Shown one piece after another: positions 39,481-61,355 of a stretch of 64,000 nt of DNA. Source of the DNA: a virus (taxonomy: Duplodnaviria; Heunggongvirae; Uroviricota; Caudoviricetes); the IMG/VR virus record IMGVR_UViG_3300042890_002891, positions 32,001 to 96,000 of that record. One strand, given 5' to 3'. Numbering within the stretch: the stretch's first letter is position 1; the number at the start of each line of letters is the position of its first letter. The notes beneath the pieces are model-generated. The model was not told where the DNA came from, did no database searches, and saw only the letters and a list, made by a program, of their open reading frames with translations. The position numbers and the translations under genes were made by a program.

Positions 39481-39803
39481 ATTGCTATTTTTGATTACAA
39501 GGTATAACTACCTCGTTTGGCGTCAAGCGTTAGCTGCTACCAAATATTGTGAGTCATTTGCATTTCTCTTTTTTGTGTCTACGGCCGAGCTTCCCCAACC
39601 CTAACGGCTTCTACATTGCCGGACTGTCCATTTCTGTACTCTTAACCCTGTCGAAACTATGCAGGCCCATTATAAAGAATACTACTGAATTGTGTTGGAT
39701 GTTGCCATCCGCAAAAACCTGTGCAATATTCTTTATGGTGGACCTGGGGGGATTCGCACCCCCGTCCAGAATCCTTTTCTGTCTACTTCATACAGTCTTA
39801 ACT
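39481..39803 (-). ncRNA. ssrA: Circularly permuted (two-piece) tmRNA
   Basis: Acceptor piece with T-arm GGGGG-TGCGAAT-CCCCC and CAGGTCC-A-CCA (3' end 39736), hairpin intervening segment, coding piece starting GGGCCTG (39668) giving G3.U70; tag ORF 39561-39523 ANDSQYLVAANA*; outer ends approximate. Confidence 0.92.
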
Positions 39804-44218: not shown

Positions 44219-44689
44219 TCAAGCTACCTTGAGGCTACGGAATCGATCAGCAGCATAACTGGCAGCAAAGGCTTCGGGCTTGACAAAAGGAATCACATTG
44301 CATGTGCCCTTAATATAGCCCACGGCCTGACTGATAACACAGCTGGAACCGTGCATTTCGTTGGGGTTGATGTCAAGGTGTACTTCAACATCACGTCCAT
44401 CTAGTACTTCAGCCAGTTGGAGATACAGTTCAGAAACCTTGTAGACTTCGGTCATGAGTCGCATGGCAGGTTTGCCGGGCTTGCTGTCATAGTCACGCTC
44501 ACGCTGTACTTCACCAAACAACTTGCAGCCATTGTTGCCGTTAATATGCACCACAATAGCCAACACATAGTCAGCATGCCATGCACCGTTGATTTTCACA
44601 CGTTCACTGTCACAGCCCAGGTAAATTTTTGTTTCTGGTGTCTGTGTTCGAATAAACGCTGCCACCTGGGCAAAATCGATTTTTCTCAT
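44219..44689 (-). CDS. RNase H-like YkuK family protein
   Basis: KIYLGCDS, RLMTEV, EVHLDIN, KPEAFAASYAAD. Confidence 0.85.
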   Translation of the reverse strand: MRKIDFAQVAAFIRTQTPETKIYLGCDSERVKINGAWHADYVLAIVVHINGNNGCKLFGEVQRERDYDSKPGKPAMRLMTEVYKVSELYLQLAEVLDGRDVEVHLDINPNEMHGSSCVISQAVGYIKGTCNVIPFVKPEAFAASYAADRFRSLKVA

Positions 44690-44703
44690 TTGTTTCTTTC
44701 TTT

Positions 44704-44782
44704 TGGTACCCCGCCTCGGAGTCGAACCGAGAGAACTCTTCCTTTTGAGAGAAGCGACTTTGCCAGATTTGTCCAGCGGGGC
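44704..44782 (-). tRNA. tRNA-Leu(CAA), short variable loop
   Basis: Cloverleaf, CCA. Confidence 0.88.
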
Positions 44783-44783
44783 T

Positions 44784-45332
44784 TTAGTAGTTATATCGCT
44801 GACCAAATCCTACTGGATCAGCTTCATGTGCTTGAACAGCTTGAGTTATGGCTCGTACCACAAACTCATTGAACGAGATATCCAGTTCATGTGCGGCCTT
44901 CATGTATGTTAACAGTTCTTCATCTGTGAAGTCCACCGGCACTTGCACACGAGTATCATACTCTTGACCGGCCACAATGGCCTGAAACTTTTGAACAAAG
45001 TCATCGTCTGTCTCAAGATCAACATAGTTGACATCATCCCAGGCTTCATTCATGTTAACACCGCGATTCTTTGCTTCCTTGTCATGCTTTTTCACATAGT
45101 CAGGATGCATCATTCTGTAGGCACGATCGTTTGTGTAGTCGCATACTTCCACACAATAGACCTTTTGGCTCCGGGTGCTGAACACAATATTGGCACTCCA
45201 GCCACCTGTGCCATGAACGCCATTCCAGGAGCTCAACTGATAGCTGTTGGATCCAAAGCACTGCCAGCCATATGTGTCGCCTTCGGTGATCCGGTAATCC
45301 ACCAGTTCCATAAATTCTTTCATACTCAACAT
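44784..45332 (-). CDS. Hypothetical phage protein
   Basis: AGGAG RBS before MLSMKEF. Confidence 0.75.
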   Translation of the reverse strand: MLSMKEFMELVDYRITEGDTYGWQCFGSNSYQLSSWNGVHGTGGWSANIVFSTRSQKVYCVEVCDYTNDRAYRMMHPDYVKKHDKEAKNRGVNMNEAWDDVNYVDLETDDDFVQKFQAIVAGQEYDTRVQVPVDFTDEELLTYMKAAHELDISFNEFVVRAITQAVQAHEADPVGFGQRYNY

Positions 45333-49670: not shown

Positions 49671-49746
49671 TGGGGTATCCTACCGGTATCGATCCGGTAC
49701 TACCGCTTTCACAGAGCAGGGTGCAGGCCACTACACTAAGGATACC
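49671..49746 (-). tRNA. tRNA-His(GTG)
   Basis: G-1:C73 pair, CCA. Confidence 0.92.
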
Positions 49747-49947
49747 ATATAGGTGCTCTCTGTGGCGCTTGAATCCACGGTAGCCCTGCTCTTCCTGGCA
49801 CTTGTTCACACGCCGCGGGCTAGTGAAGTTCAGTGTTGTTCCAGTGTAGCTACTACAGAAAGCATTTATATAATACCATAGAAAAACACACTTGGCTCCC
49901 CTTGGTTGTTTGTATCTGTCAATTCAGATTGAAAGTGCGTTTATCTA

Positions 49948-50023
49948 TGGTAGGACCACTCGGACTCGAACCGAGGATTTACAGGTTAAAAGCCTGATGT
50001 TATAACCGCTTAACTATGATCCC
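49948..50023 (-). tRNA. tRNA-Lys(TTT)
   Basis: Cloverleaf, CCA. Confidence 0.92.
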
Positions 50024-50026
50024 ATG

Positions 50027-50101
50027 TGGTCCCTCCACCGAGATTTGAACTCGGACGTCACGGATTAAGAGTCCGGCATGCTGCCTTAACATCTTGAAGG
50101 G
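50027..50101 (-). tRNA. tRNA-Lys(CTT)
   Basis: Cloverleaf, CCA. Confidence 0.9.
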
Positions 50102-50455
50102 TTGGTATGTAAAATTGTCTTTCACGTGCCAACCCGGACCTACACAGGATCTGGAGTTGACACTATAGTTTAGGAGATTTTCGTTTCATATAGTTCTTTC
50201 TTTGGTGTGACTGTTGTTATTTTCTGCGTGTGAATTTGCGCAGAAATTTTAAAAAATAATATTTCAACCCGCGTAGTGGGGCCAACTCAAATGCGAATTG
50301 TCCCGGCAGCTCACGCGGGACACTGCGTAGGCTCGATCAATGACTTCTTTGCTGCTTATGCTGCACTTCAGTTGTTTAATAACACTCTGCGACAGAGTTT
50401 AGCCGGATTACATCAAATATTCTTGTAACCTATCAGCTGCTCAGGATCATTTTAA

Positions 50456-51940
50456 TTACCTAAATGTTGGCAAATACTTCTCATCCGTAACTAGTTCAAG
50501 TAATCTTCTTTTGTATTCTGATAGAAACTTATGGGGAGGAGTAGGTTCTTTTTCATAAAAGAGACTACCTGTGTTACTTTGCAGATCATTATATTTTTCA
50601 ATGAGTCGTTGAGCTTGGAAAAAATTCATTTGGTCATTTTCCCATATTACAAAATTATGATGTGGTGCGTTGGGCATTTCGCGGTATCCAAATTTTGCAT
50701 AATCTTTGGTGATACTGCTTTCAAATACTGCGCCGTTTGCTTTTTTACCAATTATTAATGGTCTAAAGGCGAACGAGTCTAATTTTATTTCACGTGTACT
50801 CAACGCCTTCAGAGTGCGCTCAGCTGATTTAATTGTTTCGTAAGGAGTTCCAATTATAAAACTGCCATGCAGATTCATGTCATGGTATGTTTCTTTAATG
50901 GTTGATATCATTGCAATTTGTTTTTCTCTATTATAGCCTTTACCAACAGCTTGTCCACTTTTTCTATCCAACGTTTCTATACCAAAAAACATTGATCTTA
51001 CTCCAATATCGTATAACATATGAATAGTTTCGGGATGAGTGCAAATCAAATCTAATCTTGCATAACACCAGAACTCAGGTTTAAATGGCAACGATACTAT
51101 CATGTCTCTTAACTGCACAAGTTTTTCAACTGAATCGTTGAAAGTGTCATCTACTATCATGTAAATACAAATTCCATGATTGTTATAATTATGCAATAGT
51201 TCTTGTTTCAGTGTGGCAGCATCTTTAATAAAATCTAGTTTGGTCTTACCGTTCATAGGGTACGAACAAAATGCACAGCTGAATATGCATCCTCTGCCAA
51301 TTTCGATAGGTAATCTGGTATGATTCACAACGTCTTCAGCACACCATGTCATGGTATCCTTTGAAAATTCGTATCCTTCTGCAAGCACATTGTTGATGAT
51401 AATCTTGTTGTTGTTGATATTTTTATAGCTATTTTTTAATACAACACCGTGTTTTATGTGATCAACCAAATTTACTATGTTTGCTTCAGCGTATCCCAGC
51501 ACCAGGAAATCAGCATACTTGCATCGTAATTCTGGTCGTACTATCGTACCTCCTGCGACAATTTTTATTGCAGCATTCAACTTGTTGATGTGTGCAAACA
51601 CTTGATCATCAAAATCTGCTCCTTGCGGAAATAAATTAAAATTTTGTCCATGAATATTAGAATTAGATCCAGCCGTCGGCCCAGTTGCAACACTTGTAAT
51701 CAAATCATAGAATGTGGTGCTAAACCCTATCATGCATGTGTCTGACCCTACGGCACGATTTAATAATGTATAAATTTCATCAATAGTAAACTCGGACACA
51801 TGATTCACTACTAAACAAGAATACCCACTGGCACGCAGAGTATTTGCTAACTTGTATGCGCCAATAGCAGGAATAAATACTGAGTCATTAGGATTTCTGC
51901 GAACTATATCAGTAAAAAGAATAACATTAAAATTTGGCAT
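50456..51940 (-). CDS. B12-binding-domain radical SAM protein
   Basis: IEIGRGCIFSCAFC, DDTFN, FFGIETL, SFIIG.P.ET. Confidence 0.85.
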   Translation of the reverse strand: MPNFNVILFTDIVRRNPNDSVFIPAIGAYKLANTLRASGYSCLVVNHVSEFTIDEIYTLLNRAVGSDTCMIGFSTTFYDLITSVATGPTAGSNSNIHGQNFNLFPQGADFDDQVFAHINKLNAAIKIVAGGTIVRPELRCKYADFLVLGYAEANIVNLVDHIKHGVVLKNSYKNINNNKIIINNVLAEGYEFSKDTMTWCAEDVVNHTRLPIEIGRGCIFSCAFCSYPMNGKTKLDFIKDAATLKQELLHNYNNHGICIYMIVDDTFNDSVEKLVQLRDMIVSLPFKPEFWCYARLDLICTHPETIHMLYDIGVRSMFFGIETLDRKSGQAVGKGYNREKQIAMISTIKETYHDMNLHGSFIIGTPYETIKSAERTLKALSTREIKLDSFAFRPLIIGKKANGAVFESSITKDYAKFGYREMPNAPHHNFVIWENDQMNFFQAQRLIEKYNDLQSNTGSLFYEKEPTPPHKFLSEYKRRLLELVTDEKYLPTFR

Positions 51941-52007
51941 AATTGATCAATGCTGTATCAGGTGACAGCATAATTTTCATAATTGTTCCTTTAAACTATT
52001 TATATAG

Positions 52008-52081
52008 TGGTGCCCCACGACAGAATCGAACTGCCATCACAGGATTACAAAACCAGTGTACTGCCATTGTACTAGTAGGGC
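52008..52081 (-). tRNA. tRNA-Thr(TGT)
   Basis: Cloverleaf with two U.U mismatches in anticodon stem, CCA. Confidence 0.8.
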
Positions 52082-52136
52082 GAAAAAGAACAGTTCAGGG
52101 ACCTAACTTCTTAAGATGAAGAGTATGAACTATATT

Positions 52137-52215
52137 TGGCTCCGCATCTGGGGTTCGAACCCAGCTAATCATTGATTAACAGTCAAGTCCGTGCACCTAG
52201 CTCGGATTCTGCGGA
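52137..52215 (-). tRNA. tRNA-Asn(GTT)
   Basis: Cloverleaf, G73-CCA. Confidence 0.9.
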
Positions 52216-52224
52216 ATAAATTGT

Positions 52225-52314
52225 TGGCGGAACGAAAGAGACTCGAACTCTTAAAGCGGCTTTCACCACTCGACGGATTAGCAATCCGCTCCAATACCAT
52301 TATGGGACCGTTCC
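52225..52314 (-). tRNA. tRNA-Ser(GCT)
   Basis: Long variable arm, CCA. Confidence 0.93.
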
Positions 52315-52430
52315 AGGAAAATACTTAGCAGCATTGTGCTCTGCTAGAAAAATTTAACGTGGAGCCTTTCACTTGCCACGATTGGTACATCAAAGTACTT
52401 GAAGGTTACACCCAACCTCTAAGAGTGACT

Positions 52431-52519
52431 TGGTGGAAGTGGTAGGATTCGAACCTACAACGTTTCTTATGTGGCGGATTTACAGTCCGTTGCCTTCAAC
52501 CAATTCGGCACACACTTCC
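52431..52519 (-). tRNA. tRNA-Tyr(GTA)
   Basis: Long variable arm, CCA. Confidence 0.93.
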
Positions 52520-52525
52520 TAATAA

Positions 52526-52600
52526 TGGTGGAGGATAGGAGAATCGAACTCCTGACTGAAGCTTGCAAAGCTACTGCGTTCCCAATTACGCCAATCCCCC
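52526..52600 (-). tRNA. tRNA-Ala(TGC)
   Basis: G3.U70, CCA. Confidence 0.93.
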
Positions 52601-52607
52601 GTTATCT

Positions 52608-52684
52608 TGGTCGGTCCTGACGGATTTGAACCGCCAACTTCTAGTTTCGAAGACTAGCACTCTATCCAGTTGAGTTAAGGACCG
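52608..52684 (-). tRNA. tRNA-Arg(TCG)
   Basis: Cloverleaf, CCA. Confidence 0.92.
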
Positions 52685-52689
52685 ATATC

Positions 52690-52764
52690 TGGCGTACCCC
52701 CAAGGACTCGAACCCTGACTTAACGGTGTTGGAGACCGTTGTGCTGCCATTACACTAGAGATAC
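52690..52764 (-). tRNA. tRNA-Trp(CCA)
   Basis: Cloverleaf, CCA. Confidence 0.92.
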
Positions 52765-52989
52765 AAAATTTCTACACACTGTCTGCGGCATCACAGCCCT
52801 GATCAGCTCAATGTGTGTATCGAAGCACTCTTCATGGATGGACCCACGTGTCTCCCGACGGATAGAGAGTGCTTCGATACGCTGTAATTTTTCATCTCAC
52901 AAAAGAGACTCTATCCTACAGGCCGCCCATTTGCCCATGTTTTGAGTGCGGGTCAGGATCTCGTTTCCTATACACACTATCTAACGCTG

Positions 52990-53024
52990 AAAAGAAAAAA
53001 CCCTGGAGTTTTTAGTTCCAGGGT
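52990..53024 (-). terminator. Attenuator terminator 2
   Basis: ACCCTGGA-9 nt-TCCAGGGT-TTTTTCTTTT. Confidence 0.85.
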
Positions 53025-53051
53025 CTTTTGAATTTGCGGATGTTAACTTAG

Positions 53052-53180
53052 TTACTCATCACACCTCTCAAGAGATCCCGGAACGCCTGGAATACTATTC
53101 ATGCGACCATACGCATGTGACCAGGCGGATACCTGGGTAAACATGGGTTTCGTCAACAGTGAACAGAGAGTTGTTTTCAT
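53052..53180 (-). CDS. Putative attenuator leader peptide 2 (MKTTLCSLLTKPMFTQVSAWSHAYGRMNSIPGVPGSLERCDE)
   Basis: Between a consensus promoter and a terminator; 3' codons contain an antiterminator arm. Confidence 0.7.
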   Translation of the reverse strand: MKTTLCSLLTKPMFTQVSAWSHAYGRMNSIPGVPGSLERCDE

Positions 53181-53190
53181 CTTAAATCCT

Positions 53191-53219
53191 ATTATACTTT
53201 ATTTATCATTTGATGTCAA
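53191..53219 (-). promoter_or_regulatory. Consensus sigma70 promoter with embedded TAAATA late box
   Basis: TTGACA-tcaaatgaTAAATAaag-TATAAT. Confidence 0.85.
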
Positions 53220-53266
53220 CCACCAAAGATAACTTCGTGTGAAGTATTTATACTTCACGGCCAAAA

Positions 53267-53340
53267 TGGTTGCGGGTGACAGATTTGAACTGCCGATGCT
53301 CCTGGCTTATGAGACCGGAGTGGTGACCACCCTACCCGCT
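53267..53340 (-). tRNA. tRNA-Met(CAT), initiator-like, reduced D-arm
   Basis: 1:72 mismatch, GCGGG acceptor, A73-CCA. Confidence 0.78.
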
Positions 53341-53362
53341 AAATTATTTATCCTATGCGTGT

Positions 53363-53391
53363 ATTATACAACACATTTGATTTGTTGTCAA
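53363..53391 (-). promoter_or_regulatory. Consensus sigma70 promoter for tRNA-Met
   Basis: TTGACA-17-TATAAT. Confidence 0.8.
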
Positions 53392-53633
53392 CCAGGTTTG
53401 GATAAGCTGATCATGTGACTGCCATACGTTTAAAAGTGTTGCCACCTTCCTGAGCATGAGTTGACTGTGACTATCAGTCTCGTACCTTTAAACGTCAGAG
53501 GTTCAGGATTTAATCGTTGTCCCTGGCAGTTGGGCCCATCGTCAATGAGTTTTTCCGCCACATGATCTGCTTAAACTGTAATTATCTGTTTGCTGTAGTG
53601 CAACCATATAAATAATTCACAACGGAGTCATAC

Positions 53634-54341
53634 ATGGAATACAAAACAATTTATCGTGGCAAAGAACTTCCTTTTGCGGATTATTTTGAAAGCAAAAAAG
53701 CCGGTCTGGTAGCAGAATTTCTAGCACAGTATCCTGACTTCTCTAGCACAGAAGTGCTGAACAATTCAGAGATCATGCAAAACAAGATCACTGCCAAAAT
53801 TTCTACCACCCAGGGCAGAGGCACTGCTTGGAAATTGCTACAGGTCAAAGGCAACTACTACGGTGAGCCTCCTTACTATGGTTCACAACCCTTTGAAGAA
53901 TCAAAGTCGAAATTTCCAACCATGATAAGCATCATTGATTATTTTGGATTTGATAATCTTGGCAGCGTGACCTATTCTGTACTGGAAGCCAACGGCATCA
54001 TTGCCAGACACACAGGACCTGAAAATCGTGCAGGTAAATTTATTCGTTGCCACATACCTTTGATTGTACCCGAAGGTGATCTGGGTATGGAGATCAACGG
54101 AGAAGTAGTTGACTGGAGTGAATCCTTTGGATTCAACAATCAAATCATACACAGTGTCTGGAACAACACTGATTATCGTAGACTGGTATTGATGATTGAT
54201 ATAAAACGCTCGTACATTGGGTTGCCTGATGCGCCTCCGTGGACAGAAGAAACAAATGCTGATGCAGTTCCTTTTGAAAAGACTCACAACAAAGTGACAT
54301 ATGGCCCTCAAGAGATTATACCAGCAGTGAACTTGAGATAA
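53634..54341 (+). CDS. Aspartyl/asparaginyl beta-hydroxylase domain protein, copy 1
   Basis: I.RHTG, IRCHIPLIVP, FNN..IHS.WN.TD.RRLVLMID; TATAAATA at 53607-53614. Confidence 0.85.
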   Translation: MEYKTIYRGKELPFADYFESKKAGLVAEFLAQYPDFSSTEVLNNSEIMQNKITAKISTTQGRGTAWKLLQVKGNYYGEPPYYGSQPFEESKSKFPTMISIIDYFGFDNLGSVTYSVLEANGIIARHTGPENRAGKFIRCHIPLIVPEGDLGMEINGEVVDWSESFGFNNQIIHSVWNNTDYRRLVLMIDIKRSYIGLPDAPPWTEETNADAVPFEKTHNKVTYGPQEIIPAVNLR

Positions 54342-54350
54342 CTCTGTAGT

Positions 54351-55028
54351 ATGAAACTCCAAACAATTTATCGTGGCAAAGAACTTCCTTTCGTGGATTT
54401 TTTTGAAAGCAAAAAAGAAGATCTCATAAAAGAATTTCTAGTACAATATCCTGAATTCCACAGTATCGAGCCGTTGCATAATTTAGACCTCTTGCAAAAC
54501 AAGATCACAGGGGCATTGGGCAATAGAACCCACCCTGGATCTCCTTGGGAAATATTGCAAATCAAAGGTACTTATTTTGGCGAACCTCCATATTATGGCT
54601 CACAACCCTTTGAAGAATCAAAGGCAAAATTTCCAACAGCAACAAGTATTATTGATTATTTTGGATTTAGTGTCGTTCGGTCAATTTCGTATTCGGTTCT
54701 GGAACCGCACAGTACCATAGCCAGACACTGGGACCATGAAAATCATGAAGGCAAATTCATACGTGTTCATGTACCCTTGATTGTGCCCCATGGTGATCTG
54801 GGCTTAGAGGTCAATGGGGAAGTGGTTGATTGGAGTGAATCCTTTGGCTTCAACAACCTAAGATTACACAGCGCCTGGAACTTCACGGACCATCGTAGAC
54901 TGATATTATTACTTGATCTAGAACGCTTGCATCTGGGGTTGCCTGATGAGCCATCCTGGTCCGAAACAACCAATGCTGATACCGTACCCTTTCCCAAGAC
55001 ACCTGTTTTTTTATCAAAGCGCAATTGA
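54351..55028 (+). CDS. Aspartyl/asparaginyl beta-hydroxylase domain protein, copy 2
   Basis: Tandem paralogue; RHWD, IRVHVPLIVP, LHSAWN. Confidence 0.85.
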   Translation: MKLQTIYRGKELPFVDFFESKKEDLIKEFLVQYPEFHSIEPLHNLDLLQNKITGALGNRTHPGSPWEILQIKGTYFGEPPYYGSQPFEESKAKFPTATSIIDYFGFSVVRSISYSVLEPHSTIARHWDHENHEGKFIRVHVPLIVPHGDLGLEVNGEVVDWSESFGFNNLRLHSAWNFTDHRRLILLLDLERLHLGLPDEPSWSETTNADTVPFPKTPVFLSKRN

Positions 55029-55035
55029 TCTAAAC

Positions 55036-55127
55036 TGGTACCAGCGGAGAGGATCGAACTCTCTCAAGAACGCTAATCTGGCGCTAAAAGGTGTATAAGA
55101 CCTCTCTGACTACCAAGTCTCGCTGGC
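55036..55127 (-). tRNA. Unusual tRNA with TAT anticodon (Ile AUA), long variable arm, 4-nt D-loop
   Basis: 7-bp acceptor, GAGGT-CTTATAC-ACCTT, canonical T-arm, CCA. Confidence 0.8.
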
Positions 55128-55132
55128 ATGCA

Positions 55133-55206
55133 TGGAGCGGGATAAGAGAATCGAACTCTTGACTGGAGATTGGAAATCTCTAATTTTGCCATTAAACTAA
55201 TCCCGC
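55133..55206 (-). tRNA. tRNA-Gly(TCC)
   Basis: Cloverleaf, U73-CCA. Confidence 0.93.
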
Positions 55207-55216
55207 ATGAATTGAA

Positions 55217-55439
55217 TTTGAGAGCCTACGCCGCGTTTATCGTAGATTTATTCAGGACTTACCGGCCGCCTAGCCTGACCTCGAGCACGATGGATATCAC
55301 TTGGGCTCCGTCCAGTACAGTCCCCATTACGGACCTCCGCAGTTGCCCGCGGGTGGGAGTTGAACCCATTAACCTTTTACTGCTTTGGTCCTTCGAAGAA
55401 ACCTAGACAGCGTGACTTCACTTGCTGACACTCTCAAAA
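55217..55439 (-). ncRNA. Candidate structured RNA (~220 nt)
   Basis: Closing stem TTTGAGAG/CTCTCAAA, T-loop GGG-TTCAACT-CCC, several hairpins. Confidence 0.5.
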
Positions 55440-55637
55440 CTAAAAATGTAGTAGGCTGAGACATAACTCAATTGGTTTGCGCTTCGATGTTTAACGCCAT
55501 TAAAGGATCCGCAACGCCATTTACTCCGGCACCAGGCCGGAACTACAAAAAAGGTTGAGCAGCAGAGGACTTGCACCTCACAGTAACTAGTATAGGAGAC
55601 TTCCGTCTCTACTGCATCTATGCTCTACTCATAAAAT

Positions 55638-55718
55638 TGGTGGACCCCGTCGGTACTTCGCCGCACTCCTAGTTCAGTAACGTTACTTCTGAACCAACGC
55701 ATCTCACGTTGAGAGCCC
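55638..55718 (-). ncRNA. tRNA-like RNA with G3.U70 and CCA but no normal anticodon arm
   Basis: GGGCTCT/GGGGTCC-A-CCA. Confidence 0.55.
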
Positions 55719-55783
55719 ATAAACTAATCAAGGGCTTGTAGACCAAACTACAATTTACCGGTTTCTAGACGAACCCCTAAACT

Positions 55784-55859
55784 TGGTGGGCTATCGAGGA
55801 CTCAAACCTCGCAACATCTCTATGTCAAAGAGACAGGATTTCCAATCACTCTAAAGCCT
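55784..55859 (-). tRNA. tRNA-Val(GAC), degenerate
   Basis: Good anticodon and T arms, mismatched acceptor, CCA. Confidence 0.6.
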
Positions 55860-55865
55860 ATTATT

Positions 55866-55979
55866 TGGTGGAGACAGCCTACACACATGCACTACACACC
55901 TGTGCCGTCCACTTTATCCGCTGGTCTCAGCAGTCGCGCCGTTCTAGCAGCGCCTTGCACAAGATCAGTTTCAGTCTCC
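55866..55979 (-). ncRNA. CCA-ended non-cloverleaf RNA (114 nt)
   Basis: GGAGAC/GTCTCC-A-CCA. Confidence 0.5.
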
Positions 55980-55985
55980 GAAAAT

Positions 55986-56156
55986 TGGTGATTAGTGCTG
56001 CTGCGACACAGCGACATCCCCGGAGCGAGAGCGTAGGAACTGAATCTACGGGTTTAGCACCTCCGGGGTCGAACAGTCAGGACAACTACTGGTACCGTAC
56101 TTGCTGACACTTGTTCAAGGTGTGTCGCGTTTTTGTACTTTCATTTCCAACTAACC
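55986..56156 (-). ncRNA. CCA-ended structured RNA (171 nt)
   Basis: GGTTAGT/ACTAATC-A-CCA; internal GCGACAC/GTGTCGC and CCCCGGAG/CTCCGGGG helices. Confidence 0.55.
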
Positions 56157-56629
56157 ATATAGAAACACACTCAAAACTGCTGTTAAACCCTTGCAGGGGC
56201 ATGCCTAGTTAAAAAATGTGTTCTTATATGGCTGGCAATGTTATGAGGGCTCTTACCCCATCGTTGTTTGTATAGGCTGCGCGACCTATACATCCCGGAC
56301 ACACTCCCTGACCCGGCAATGCTTACTTTGTGGCTCTTGCTTTCCACTTGATTCTGATCATATAGAAACACACTAGAGTTTTACGATAAACTACGCTCCT
56401 GAGTTTCTGCTCAGGACCCCATAGGTCTGCCTATGTTTCTAATGTGTTTTTATATAACAAAATAGTGAACAGGATTTGCACCTGTGCCCACAGCCTGTTG
56501 ACAAGACTGCACTCTCCTACTAATCTACCACCATATAGGAACACACTGGCACTCAATTGTCAATTGCAGAGCATAATAATTCTACGCCCTATGAGTTACG
56601 CATACTCTTCCAATGTGTTTTTATATGGT
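56153..56629 (-). repeat. Three copies of a conserved-stem/variable-loop hairpin (56153-56233, 56359-56457, 56530-56629)
   Basis: TATA(A)RAACACATT ... AGTGTGTTYCTATATG on the minus strand. Confidence 0.75.
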
Positions 56630-56688
56630 ATAGTAAAAACGTAATGGTTACGATTCCATTGCTACTTGATCATGTAGCCGATTTTGTT

Positions 56689-56763
56689 TGGCGCCACGGA
56701 CGGGAATCGAACCCGTCTTGGTCGGATAGACAATCCGTTGCCCTCCCAGAGAGCTACCGTGGC
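56689..56763 (-). tRNA. tRNA-Asp(GTC)
   Basis: Cloverleaf, G73-CCA. Confidence 0.9.
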
Positions 56764-56769
56764 AAAACT

Positions 56770-56844
56770 TGGTAGAGCATAGCGGAGTCGAACCGCTCTT
56801 AGTGGACTGAAAACCCACTGTCCTAACCGATAGACGAATGCTCC
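56770..56844 (-). tRNA. tRNA-Glu(TTC)
   Basis: Cloverleaf, CCA. Confidence 0.9.
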
Positions 56845-57122
56845 ACTATATGAAAACACACTTATTCAGGAACGTGCTGATCAAACACAAGAGAGCTACT
56901 CTTGTGCCCATCCGCTGTCATTACTGTCCACATGTTCCGCCGCTTGTCCAGATCAACTGATTTCTCAGTGAGAGCCTATTTCATGCCAGCGAGGGAGTAG
57001 CCTGCTAAGGCGGGGTTCAAACCCATAATCCTGATTCACTTGCCTAACGGTGTGGATAACCTGTATAACTGTGCTTACATATAGTGCCCAGAACCAAATC
57101 TGGGTACACTATACAAAATCAA

Positions 57123-57310
57123 ATTTTTAACGAACTCTTCACACTGTGTCAATGCACTGTGCTGCTTTCTAACTAGTCTCTAGTATAACATGTTATGCAA
57201 TACTGGTCAACCTGTTTTGCAAATGCCCCGCTGTAGTGTAGGGTCTTTGCAAAATCTGCTGTTCTCCTGTCTCTTGTGTGTATTATAGCACTAGACTGAA
57301 TAAGAGTCAA
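57123..57310 (-). promoter_or_regulatory. Tandem sigma70 promoters plus boxA-like element heading the ncRNA/tRNA operon
   Basis: TTGACT-17-TATAAT (57310-57282), TTGACC-17-TATACT (57210-57182), GTTCGTTAAAAAT (57135-57123). Confidence 0.7.
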
Positions 57311-59240: not shown

Positions 59241-59473
59241 GATTTCTCCAGAGTCCGTAATAGCGTTTTTTCCCGAAATGTGGCCAGGCGTTGGTCAAGT
59301 TCGGCCCTGACATCCCAGTGTTGTTTGCTGAGTCTTAAAACCCAGGCACTCAACAGGCCCAGCTGATATGCAATTTCATCTGCGTCCGTGTATTGGCCGC
59401 CACTGCTGACTGCGTTTAGCACATCAGTTATTTCTTTGTGATTTTTTACGTGAACTTTTAGGTTGCTATACAT
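59237..59473 (-). CDS. Hypothetical protein
   Basis: Coupled 78-aa ORF. Confidence 0.65.
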   Translation of the reverse strand: MYSNLKVHVKNHKEITDVLNAVSSGGQYTDADEIAYQLGLLSAWVLRLSKQHWDVRAELDQRLATFREKTLLRTLEKS

Positions 59474-59927
59474 GCCATATCTCCTGGAACCCCTCTTCCA
59501 GTGTGGGTTCTTTCAAATTTTGTAACATACTTAGCATCACATGATCCGGAATGCTTTTGCCTGGACGGCCAGCCAGTCTACGAGCAAGTTCCACAGGTTC
59601 GGGTGTGCCAAACACCACAGCAATATGTTCATAGTCGGGCAGCATGTGAAACTTCTTTCGTCGGCTGGCCACAGTGGTTGAGGTTTGATCCCAGATCACA
59701 CTGTGACCATGTTCCCGTGCAAACACCACCTGTTGAGCCATTAGATCCACTGCTCGAGGCATGTAGTCTCGAAACACTTGATTGTAGGTTTGGCCTTGTG
59801 CTCTAGCATAGTCTTCCACAAACGTGTCTGTACTAACCACAGTCAAGCCCAGGGCCCATATTTGGTTCCGGATCCAGGTGCTTTTACCCGAACCTGGCAC
59901 TCCAATCATTTGATAACATTTTGGCAT
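59466..59927 (-). CDS. P-loop polynucleotide kinase-like protein (AAA_33)
   Basis: GVPGSGKST, VSTD, IWDQT. Confidence 0.85.
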   Translation of the reverse strand: MPKCYQMIGVPGSGKSTWIRNQIWALGLTVVSTDTFVEDYARAQGQTYNQVFRDYMPRAVDLMAQQVVFAREHGHSVIWDQTSTTVASRRKKFHMLPDYEHIAVVFGTPEPVELARRLAGRPGKSIPDHVMLSMLQNLKEPTLEEGFQEIWHV

Positions 59928-60814
59928 CCTGCCTCCAGATAGTTTCTAACCCAGGCCAAGCGAGCCTGTTCGTCCATCACAGTATAAGTGTCGATGTTGT
60001 TGCGTATGTGATCCAACAGCGGGTAGTATTCCTCGTCAATCTGTTCTCGAAACTGTTGAGTCAACAACTTGTCAGTTCTTGGGTTACGTGCCACCCACTT
60101 GGCAGTCAGGTAGTAGGGTGACTTCAACTTGGAACTCACATTACCTTCATCGGTATAGAAAACAAAACCTTCGTGCTTGACAGTCTTGACTTCTTGCAAT
60201 AGTTGACCCATTGAAGTGTAAAACGACTGCACAATGCGTGTGCGAAACGCATTTTGCAACAGCATCATGATTGCAGCATTGGCCTCAATTGGACTGCACC
60301 ATTCGTTCTTGCGCATGCCCAACAAGTACATGCCTGGCTGCTCAGGAACAATGTGTGGATCACTTTCATGAACACATTCAAACATAAATGTGTGGCCTTC
60401 ATACTGCTTGCAAGTGGCACGATAACGATCTATGTTGTCACCAATCATTTCACGTGCCATGTCAACATAAGGACTGTCAGTGCTACCAGTTGTGCTGATC
60501 AGTACATCATCCCGATACCATGTGCAAGCCACCATGAAACCGTTGACCTTGCGATAAGCAGTCACATGAACATTGTCAGCCAGCACAGGTGCAGACTTTT
60601 CAATGCCGTAGTTGTAGATCTTGGTGAATGGATAAGCAACCAAGTTGAAGTCACGATCCACAATGCTTCCACGACATTCGGCAATGTATTCGTCCCAGAG
60701 GCTGTCGTAGAACACTTTCTTCTTGTACTTGAGCACGTAGATACCATCGCCACATTCTCGGCGGTTCACCAGATTGGATGATTCCACATACTGTTTTAGT
60801 TTTTCTCTAAACAT
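59906..60814 (-). CDS. RNA ligase (T4 Rnl1-like)
   Basis: ECRG, PFTKIYN, KVNG (motif I), FE, EGFV (motif IV), KLK. Confidence 0.85.
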   Translation of the reverse strand: MFREKLKQYVESSNLVNRRECGDGIYVLKYKKKVFYDSLWDEYIAECRGSIVDRDFNLVAYPFTKIYNYGIEKSAPVLADNVHVTAYRKVNGFMVACTWYRDDVLISTTGSTDSPYVDMAREMIGDNIDRYRATCKQYEGHTFMFECVHESDPHIVPEQPGMYLLGMRKNEWCSPIEANAAIMMLLQNAFRTRIVQSFYTSMGQLLQEVKTVKHEGFVFYTDEGNVSSKLKSPYYLTAKWVARNPRTDKLLTQQFREQIDEEYYPLLDHIRNNIDTYTVMDEQARLAWVRNYLEAGCQNVIK

Positions 60815-61355
60815 GATGACCCTTGATCTTGCCTTTTAGGGCTTGTGCAATAGCACGTTCCATGGTGATAGCAATTGCGCCAGTGGCATCCATGCCCACG
60901 TCCAACGCACGATAATTTTCCAGGCTGCTGGTGCCACCGTGCAAGTGTCCGTGAAAATGAACAGCACCGCGATGCATCTGATCCCACTCTGCTATGGGAT
61001 AATGAAACATCACTACCTTGGTTTCGTTGAACTGTGCATCCAGGTACTTGTGTATCTGTGCAAAGCAGTCACGGAAATCCTGATCTTGCAACAGCTTGCG
61101 GTCGTGGTTGCCTTCAACCAGAATCTTGACTCCATTCAGTCGACGCACAGTTGCCACGGCTTTTTCCGCAGGCAAGAATGCCACGTCACCCAGAATGTAC
61201 ACAGTGTCGTCTGCGCCAATCAAGTCGTTCCATTCTCGAATCATGGCCTCGTTCATGTAGGCCACATCGTTACGAAACCGTGCCCGTGACTCAGGGCAAA
61301 ATTTCATTATGTTCTTGTGTCCCCAGTGGAGATCACTTGTGATCCAGGTTGTCAT
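60807..61355 (-). CDS. Calcineurin-like metallophosphoesterase
   Basis: SDLHWGH, LGD, GNHD, HGHLH. Confidence 0.92.
   Translation of the reverse strand: MTTWITSDLHWGHKNIMKFCPESRARFRNDVAYMNEAMIREWNDLIGADDTVYILGDVAFLPAEKAVATVRRLNGVKILVEGNHDRKLLQDQDFRDCFAQIHKYLDAQFNETKVVMFHYPIAEWDQMHRGAVHFHGHLHGGTSSLENYRALDVGMDATGAIAITMERAIAQALKGKIKGHHV

Follow-up and report, generated by a model that had tools for sequence, protein, structure and literature searches.

A family of RNA hairpins connecting tRNA genes is found in a stretch of phage DNA of 64,000 nucleotides (the window, hereafter), corresponding to bases 32001-96000 of a single 261,673-bp virus record of IMG/VR (IMGVR_UViG_3300042890_002891; 45% G+C). 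These hairpins have a common stem, which is anchored on a tRNA's encoded CCA, in most cases that of tRNA-Lys(UUU), and which encloses exchangeable inserts. Comparison with many other uncultured phages demonstrates the pairing of the stem at the RNA level, the position of the hairpin relative to the tRNAs, its link with tRNA-Lys and a turnover of the inserts that goes together with conservation inside insert families. As for the role of the element, we give about an even chance to the following proposal: the hairpin would be a spacer and processing cassette of the tRNA-array precursor, cut out during tRNA maturation and leaving a stem-capped small RNA with modular cargo.

In the window, five hairpins of the minus strand (W1, W3, W4, W5, and W6 below) have in common one stem of 17-20 bp and, with few substitutions, its arms CCATATAAAAACACATT and AGTGTGTTTCTATATGG. 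These hairpins, the elements resembling them and the genes needed to discuss them are the following (z, folding score relative to shuffled sequences; tmRNA, transfer-messenger RNA):

49874-49952, minus strand: hairpin W1, 18-bp stem with U.U at position 8, z -5.4, 45-nt insert
56153-56233, minus strand: hairpin W3, canonical stem with an A.C mismatch, z -3.6, 47-nt insert with three relatives in IMG/VR
56359-56457, minus strand: hairpin W4, z -7.3, 65-nt insert with three hairpins and a cloverleaf-like shape
56530-56629, minus strand: hairpin W5, canonical stem, z -5.1, 66-nt insert
56844-57086, minus strand: hairpin W6, long stem, z -2.4, insert of about 190-210 nt
49746-49873, minus strand: W1b, a seventh member, whose lower stem (AU only) is separated by an internal loop from its upper stem, z -2.5
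52817-52880, minus strand: co-varying variant with a perfect 15-bp stem, z -5.9, at the head of the main tRNA array
52773-52819, minus strand: weak partial copy with the 8-bp upper-stem motif only, directly 5′ of tRNA-Trp
39662-39746, minus strand: hairpin of the tmRNA intervening segment, z -6.2, directly after the CCA
49948-50023, minus strand: tRNA-Lys(TTT), whose encoded CCA is the first three bases of W1
56461-56534, minus strand: degenerate tRNA-like gene without CCA, scoring 35 bits with the Rfam tRNA model and not called by ARAGORN
44219-44806, minus strand: gene of a YkuK/DUF458 (PF04308) protein with an RNase H fold, inside the tRNA array

The five hairpins with shared arms fold into about 9 bp, a mismatch at position 8 and about 10 bp, with z scores of -3.6 to -7.3 in the four short ones. 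The window contains nine occurrences of the right-arm pattern, where chance would give 0.95, and no further copies were found elsewhere in the 262-kb genome. An initial annotation of this DNA had described a family of six hairpins with a shared stem. Five members are retained, together with the variant at 52817-52880, whose upper stem belongs to a variant class also found in relatives, but the element at 52773-52819 folds no better than shuffled sequences (z -0.7) and may be a weak copy or a remnant. The same annotation had one hairpin starting at the CCA of tRNA-Lys(TTT), where W1 indeed begins, and another ending at the 5′ end of tRNA-Glu, where W6 indeed ends, on base 1. W6 forms the 5′ leader of a transcription unit, with strong promoters upstream at 57310, 57210, and 57152, and the 3′ arm of W1b, a hairpin that the initial annotation had not listed, ends at the 5′ end of tRNA-His. 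The degenerate tRNA-like gene is flanked by the 3′ arm of W5, which overlaps its start, and by the 5′ arm of W4. At the base of the W4 stem, CC/GG is replaced by UU/GA, giving U.G and U-A pairs, so that pairing is maintained despite the loss of the CCA. Finally, a similar CCA stem had been attributed to the tmRNA intervening segment. A hairpin is real there, but it has another sequence and leaves the CCA unpaired, outside the stem; it is only analogous to the hairpin family and not a sequence member of it.

The element is abundant in other phages. Exact scans of IMG/VR with the right arm, then with the left arm, gave at least 120 loci each. Among the matches listed, a scope that also holds for the counts of upstream and downstream tRNAs, strands and loop lengths given below, 142 of 149 right-arm matches have the left arm 4-280 nt upstream. 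A canonical-like copy of the hairpin is present in at least 233 of the loci examined. A gapped pattern scan of 185,579 prokaryote genomes returned one match, on a 1.5-kb contig of a Candidatus Planktophila metagenome-assembled genome. This match is probably phage DNA and, as it is the only one, the element belongs to phages and not to host chromosomes. Searching 50,697 records of cultured phages by blastn with three of the hairpins yielded chance matches only, which is a weak test for bare arms of 17 nt. No close cultured relative of the phage was found, the best identity being 58% for the YkuK-like protein. No Rfam 15 family corresponds to the hairpins at E values up to 5 in the window and up to 1 in 16 loci; whether gathering or permissive thresholds are applied, the Rfam matches in these sequences are tRNAs (including degenerate tRNA-like genes that overlap the arms), one GOLLD RNA and one group I intron. 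No description of the element was found in the literature, and unnamed copies may figure in a catalogue published in 2023 (PMC10690425), which has more than 10,000 candidate structured RNAs of viruses.

A distant version of the element occurs in Synechococcus phage BUCT-ZZ01 (ON615601.1). In this phage, a related hairpin with a T-loop motif in its insert lies just 5′ of tRNA-Tyr (locus L182:1500-1615, at about 128720-128835 of the record), and an AU-rich hairpin paired at 14 of 17 positions follows tRNA-Lys(ttt) (locus L277:11394-11467). With its genetically tractable host, Synechococcus elongatus PCC 7942, BUCT-ZZ01 is a possible laboratory model.

The position of the hairpin relative to the tRNAs is precise. 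Its start coincides with the encoded CCA of the upstream tRNA in 101 of 129 copies, this tRNA being tRNA-Lys in 62 of the CCA-sharing copies, tRNA-Gln in 15, tRNA-Glu in 7 and tRNA-Leu in 7. In 46 copies, it ends on base 1 or 2 of the tRNA that follows (24 tRNA-Met, 10 tRNA-His). With respect to the nearest tRNA, 100 copies are on the same strand and two on the opposite one. A sample independent of the motif was obtained by drawing 80 loci through the neighbouring gene of the YkuK/DUF458 type (44219-44806 in the window). It contains 58 CCA-anchored hairpins paired at 16 or more of the 17 positions, vs two with a shuffled arm. Among the tRNA-Lys(ttt) genes of this protein-drawn sample, 51 of 58 have a hairpin; the figure is 13 of 48 for tRNA-Glu(ttc), 0 of 54 for tRNA-Gln(ttg) and 0 of 32 for tRNA-Leu(taa). 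The association is therefore essentially with Lys(ttt) and partly with Glu(ttc), and a link to tRNAs with wobble modifications of the mnm5s2U (5-methylaminomethyl-2-thiouridine) type was rejected on the two zeros. The gene that follows the tRNA-Lys hairpin in the same sample is tRNA-His in 23 cases and tRNA-Met in 22, with direct abutment in 33 of 51. An intrinsic terminator was also considered and rejected: the stem is not followed by a U run, and its 3′ arm leads straight into a tRNA or another RNA. In the window, neither a strong consensus promoter nor a convincing terminator was found between hairpins and tRNAs.

The stem consists of 17 conserved pairs and one to three co-varying extra pairs (about 17-21 bp in all). 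The 5′ arm begins on C74 of the encoded CCA, and the 3′ arm stops on base 1-2 of the tRNA that follows. Stability comes from the upper stem, about 10 bp long. In the lower stem there are A-U pairs only, positions 3-6 remaining A-U or U-A even under co-variation, and A(-2)U(-1) is displayed there at the site of RNase P cleavage. Mismatches recur at position 8, in about 75% of the canonical stems and in about one third of all distinct stems. Substitutions in the arms are strongly asymmetric. For a fixed 3′ arm, 37 substitutions are counted at positions 11-15 of the 5′ arm, all of them A>G or C>U; for a fixed 5′ arm, the 3′ arm has one. These changes of the 5′ arm preserve G-U pairing, and they do so solely in RNA of the tRNA sense. 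The first pair past the constant part is formed in 80% of the copies, with six pair types, and compensatory changes occur at positions 4-17 across 106 distinct arm pairs. In the family of hairpins with an insert of the W1 type (26 distinct sequences), 9 of the 18 stem pairs have changed on both sides. In the same family, 97.9% of the stem cells of helix 1 are paired, the value for the whole structure being 28-41% when the partner is slid by one to three columns, and none of 500 shuffles attains the observed pairing. Furthermore, the stem stays about 83-94% identical while the adjoining tRNA-Lys genes drop to about 66%. It is strongly supported by these comparisons that the hairpin acts as an RNA helix, on the tRNA strand. 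Within one transcript, this helix joins the upstream CCA and an AU-only trailer to the leader of the following tRNA.

Inside this helix the cargo varies widely. The loop measures 4-278 nt, with a median of about 50, and about 95% of the copies have an insert of at least 29 nt. The 168 distinct inserts fall into 117 unrelated families, 90 of which are singletons. The earlier statement that the inserts are unrelated is borne out among the hairpins of the window, three of whose inserts have relatives in other phages; for the 66-nt insert of W5, no relative has been found so far. In the protein-drawn sample, 51 tRNA-Lys hairpins hold 29 insert families. The same insert is shared by 37% of the pairs whose tRNA-Lys genes are at least 95% identical, and never at 90-95% identity; the identity of the arms is about 0.83 at every level of tRNA-Lys divergence. 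One insert can also be found behind different tRNAs.

Conservation is nevertheless observed within insert families. The W4-type inserts all lie inside the stem (17/17), and their internal helix is retained by compensatory changes. About 40 inserts of the W1 type are nearly invariant, while their enclosing stems differ and co-vary, several of them lacking the CCA; in this family, the cargo is conserved more than the stem. The 45-nt insert of W1 itself is a deletion derivative of the insert of about 98 nt present in about 40 other phage contigs. The full version (alignment A2, for instance L024:8531-8666) is an internal duplication, almost invariant over 26 distinct sequences, in which two hairpins have the same loop, AAUUGA, and the Shine-Dalgarno-like sequence AAGGGGAGCC is present twice. 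Over all inserts, the T-loop sequence GGTTCGA is the only enriched motif. The sequence TTTT is somewhat depleted, with 8 occurrences observed vs 15 expected.

The proposal of a cassette cut out during tRNA maturation can be described in terms of known enzymes. RNase P would cleave the 3′ side of the hairpin. The CCA side would be cleaved by an endonuclease, either RNase III acting on the duplex of about 18-20 bp, or RNase E acting in the weak, breathing AU-only lower stem. Exonucleases would trim the upstream tRNA back to its CCA. Both tRNAs would in this way be freed, and the excised small RNA would have its ends capped by the upper stem. RNase III, which most bacteria have, is compatible with the data as the cutter, a duplex of about 17-21 bp being long enough for it. 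The arm sequence being common to many phages, the apical modules would be exchanged by recombination within the arms. In the window, all arms are mutually complementary across elements. When 56640-56150 is folded as a whole, the structure of minimum energy joins W5 to W3 at both arms, 5′ of W5 to 3′ of W3 and 3′ of W5 to 5′ of W3. Long-range alternative stalks around the RNAs located between these arms are thus possible. As a consequence of this complementarity, all segments would be cut apart by a nuclease specific for duplexes, no matter which arms pair with each other. Finally, the A(-2)U(-1) displayed by the lower stem is reported to be optimal for bacterial RNase P (PMC10731613).

Several observations weigh against this proposal. 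The initial annotation had suggested an RNase III-like processing stalk releasing variable cargo. The RNA nature of the element and its standard stem with variable cargo are strongly supported by the comparative data, but RNase III goes no further than compatibility, and a gene for this enzyme is found in none of 27 large hairpin-bearing phage records. Taken as a class, the inserts fold not significantly better than random genome stretches (mean z -0.41 vs -0.21, p = 0.22), some copies have minimal loops of 4-9 nt, and the insert of W1 arose by deletion. Many copies may therefore do without their cargo. Inserts acting as antisense RNAs were considered, and their complementarity to the upstream tRNA or to the phage genome is at chance level; mimics of the tRNA-Lys anticodon loop were looked for among the inserts and none was found. 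Excision, the enzymes, the stability of the released RNA and a role for the cargo are what we infer from comparison of sequences. Moreover, stable leader hairpins are reported to slow and order RNase P cleavage (PMC10731613), so that a hairpin abutting the cleavage site should slow the enzyme and the element could be a brake and not a release signal.

In another explanation, the hairpin would be only a spacer, an insulator or a timing device. It would prevent misfolding between neighbouring tRNAs, and pairing of the upstream CCA with the downstream leader would set the order and rate of RNase P cleavage and 3′-end processing, especially for tRNA-Lys(UUU), the inserts being tolerated filler without a role. 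This is rather unlikely in our estimation. It accounts for the stem, not the insert, being the common feature, for the copies with loops of 4-9 nt, for inserts that as a class are no more stable than control sequence, and for the failure to find targets in the upstream tRNA, in the phage genome or through anticodon-loop mimicry. It also agrees with the report that leader hairpins and leader-CCA pairing slow RNase P and impose directional processing (PMC10731613). However, filler would hardly be expected to reach 29 nt or more in about 95% of the copies, nor to form families conserved across contigs with differing stems and flanking tRNAs. In particular, the W1-type insert remains nearly invariant over its 26 distinct sequences while the stem co-varies, and the internal helix of the W4-type insert is kept via compensatory changes. 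Alternatively, the stem may be imagined as the handle by which a dedicated protein takes hold of the variable domains to load, cut or display them, in the way that Y RNAs are held by Ro60 or CRISPR repeats by Cas6. The retention of the stem at about 83-94% identity beside tRNA-Lys genes down to about 66%, as well as the recurrent mismatch at position 8, would suit such a handle. Two candidate proteins have been considered. The YkuK/DUF458 protein, whose PF04308 relatives are encoded in more than 595 IMG/VR stretches, is the best co-occurring partner and a candidate tRNA-array nuclease: its gene is found in 20 of the 27 large records, and hairpins are present in 57 of the 80 loci drawn via PF04308. 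Nevertheless, as an obligatory partner it was rejected, since three complete hairpin-bearing genomes do not have the gene and since the cultured Stenotrophomonas phage DLP_6 has it although the tRNA region examined there, of 40 kb, is free of CCA-anchored hairpins. The other candidate, a Ro-like protein with DUF2828 and DUF7788 domains, adjoins hairpins in 14 of 120 loci among the matches listed, but occurs in only 5 of the 27 large records, and neither a TROVE nor a DUF2828 match was found in the genome of the window, which is 75% complete. The protein-binding scaffold put forward in the initial annotation is therefore left without a consistent partner. Besides, the sequence of the stem is dispensable, as one insert is found in several fully co-varying stems, and co-occurrence may merely mirror a shared phage lineage. 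We regard a dedicated protein handle as improbable.

An element acting at the DNA level, such as a miniature inverted-repeat transposable element (MITE), an invertible segment or a recombination site, appears very improbable. Inverted terminal repeats do enclose interiors that are unrelated to one another, one and the same insert can follow different tRNAs, replacement of inserts is seen among close relatives, and HNH endonuclease genes are frequent in these arrays. However, the orientation to the tRNAs is fixed (100 vs 2), G-U pairs are kept only in the sense RNA, and no inverted insert was found apart from artefacts of the palindromic arms. No target-site duplication is seen, because the element has for its ends the CCA and base 1-2 of the tRNAs on either side. 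No reverse transcriptase (RVT_1) match was found in the genome, by which a retron or a diversity-generating retroelement was also rejected. A MITE or terminal-inverted-repeat transposon was rejected on the 117 unrelated interiors, the fixed orientation and the ends of the element, and ordinary homologous recombination in the arms suffices for the turnover of the inserts. Returning to the cassette cut out during tRNA maturation, a stronger version may be envisaged, which we hold only tentatively and consider doubtful as a whole. The stem would then be a plug-in slot, linked to tRNA maturation, that expresses, excises and end-protects any of more than 100 RNA modules. These modules would be traded by recombination in the arms under diversifying pressure, for instance as decoys or regulators directed against host defences that target tRNA-Lys or translation.

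Compared with known systems, the hairpin is best classed with spacer and processing hairpins and with tRNA-linked small RNAs, as a variant distinguished by its anchoring on the CCA, its preference for tRNA-Lys and its shared stem with exchangeable, family-conserved cargo. RNase III processing hairpins and stalks are known from the early-region sites of T7 and from the leader-trailer stalks of rRNA operons. Like them, the element offers about 20 bp of duplex, frequently interrupted by a mismatch, of similar sequence repeated in one genome, and set between functional RNAs of one precursor for their separation by cutting. Unlike them, it is anchored on a tRNA CCA, its loop holds exchangeable modules of 30-280 nt, and no phage-encoded RNase III was found (0/27 hairpin-bearing records). 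Small RNAs are also produced from the spacers and trailers of tRNA operons, as exemplified by 3′ETS(leuZ) of E. coli and by the TMERs (tRNA-linked precursor-microRNA hairpins) of murine gammaherpesvirus 68. In both cases, as here, a non-tRNA RNA stands directly 3′ of a tRNA on the same transcript, and tRNA-processing enzymes could define its ends. The herpesvirus moreover uses tRNA processing to release its hairpins, a release which in the present case is a proposal. On the other hand, neither example is known to have a common closing stem that can be topped by any of more than 100 apical domains, or a strong preference for tRNA-Lys(UUU), and no base-pairing target was found here in the upstream tRNA or the phage genome. 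The intervening segment of the permuted tmRNA likewise places a hairpin, which needs removal, between an encoded CCA and the next 5′ end generated by RNase P. It differs in being a single copy of another sequence, with the CCA unpaired and no variable cargo.

Two further comparisons concern the combination of constant stem and variable content. Y RNAs and YrlA, which associate with Ro60 (Rsr), also have a conserved closing stem and variable loops, and the T-loop motif of some inserts recalls the tRNA-like domain of YrlA. However, there is no TROVE gene in the genome of the window, only 5 of the 27 records have a Ro-like gene, no Rfam match is obtained, and the sequence of the stem can here be replaced through co-variation. 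The PeSL cassettes of T4-type phages are promoter and stem-loop repeats that shuffle novel open reading frames. They resemble the present element in that short conserved repeats surround highly variable cargo and in the modular exchange between related phages. Nevertheless, PeSL repeats are direct, carry promoters and surround protein genes, whereas the repeats described here are inverted, form an RNA helix and enclose small RNAs.

Phage tRNA arrays are viewed as islands of counter-defence and translation support, and their non-tRNA RNAs are largely unexplained. In addition, tRNA-Lys(UUU) is a classic target of anticodon nucleases. In this context, an element abundant in uncultured phages is tied to tRNA-Lys(UUU) and adjoins a repair module made of a kinase, an RNA ligase and a phosphoesterase, and it combines a co-varying helix with wholesale replacement of modules. 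If the modules are functional, they would form a large and unexplored source of small RNAs of phages, equipped with its own platform for expression and processing. If they are not, the element would still show, in a clear natural example, how a virus orders the processing of a polycistronic tRNA precursor. Should the idea of a plug-in slot prove true, the hairpins would be an RNA counterpart of gene cassettes.

The genome of the window, estimated by CheckV to be 75% complete, would correspond to a phage genome of about 350 kb. On the minus strand, the window carries 29 tRNA genes and a permuted tmRNA, every tRNA having an encoded CCA. Besides the YkuK/DUF458 gene, the following genes accompany the array:

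59466-59927, minus strand: P-loop kinase (AAA_33), adjoining the tRNA array
59906-60814, minus strand: Rnl1-type RNA ligase, adjoining the tRNA array
60807-61355, minus strand: phosphoesterase (metallophosphoesterase), adjoining the tRNA array
53634-55028, plus strand: pair of paralogous genes resembling Asp/Asn beta-hydroxylases (PF05118), midway in the tRNA region and on the opposite strand
50456-51940, minus strand: B12-binding radical SAM gene

The first three (59466-61355) constitute a tRNA-repair module resembling Pnkp/Rnl1 of T4. The phosphoesterase family is among the most frequent neighbours of the hairpin, in 32 of 120 loci among the matches listed. The Ro-like protein is exemplified by a 477-aa DUF2828 and DUF7788 protein (L072:3658-5091, plus strand; phrog_850, 'RNA-binding protein'), for which no relative was found by sequence in the PDB. 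In DLP_6, the PF04308 gene lies directly after tRNA-Lys(TTT). The CCA is encoded in about 97% of some 3,500 phage tRNA genes (1896/1962 in loci L001-L120 and 1543/1556 in loci L184-L263). A GOLLD RNA is present in one hairpin-bearing phage tRNA array (L040:2321-2676, minus strand, 148.5 bits, truncated at the locus end), and a group I intron lies within another phage tRNA array (L156:1244-1435, plus strand, 58.9 bits).

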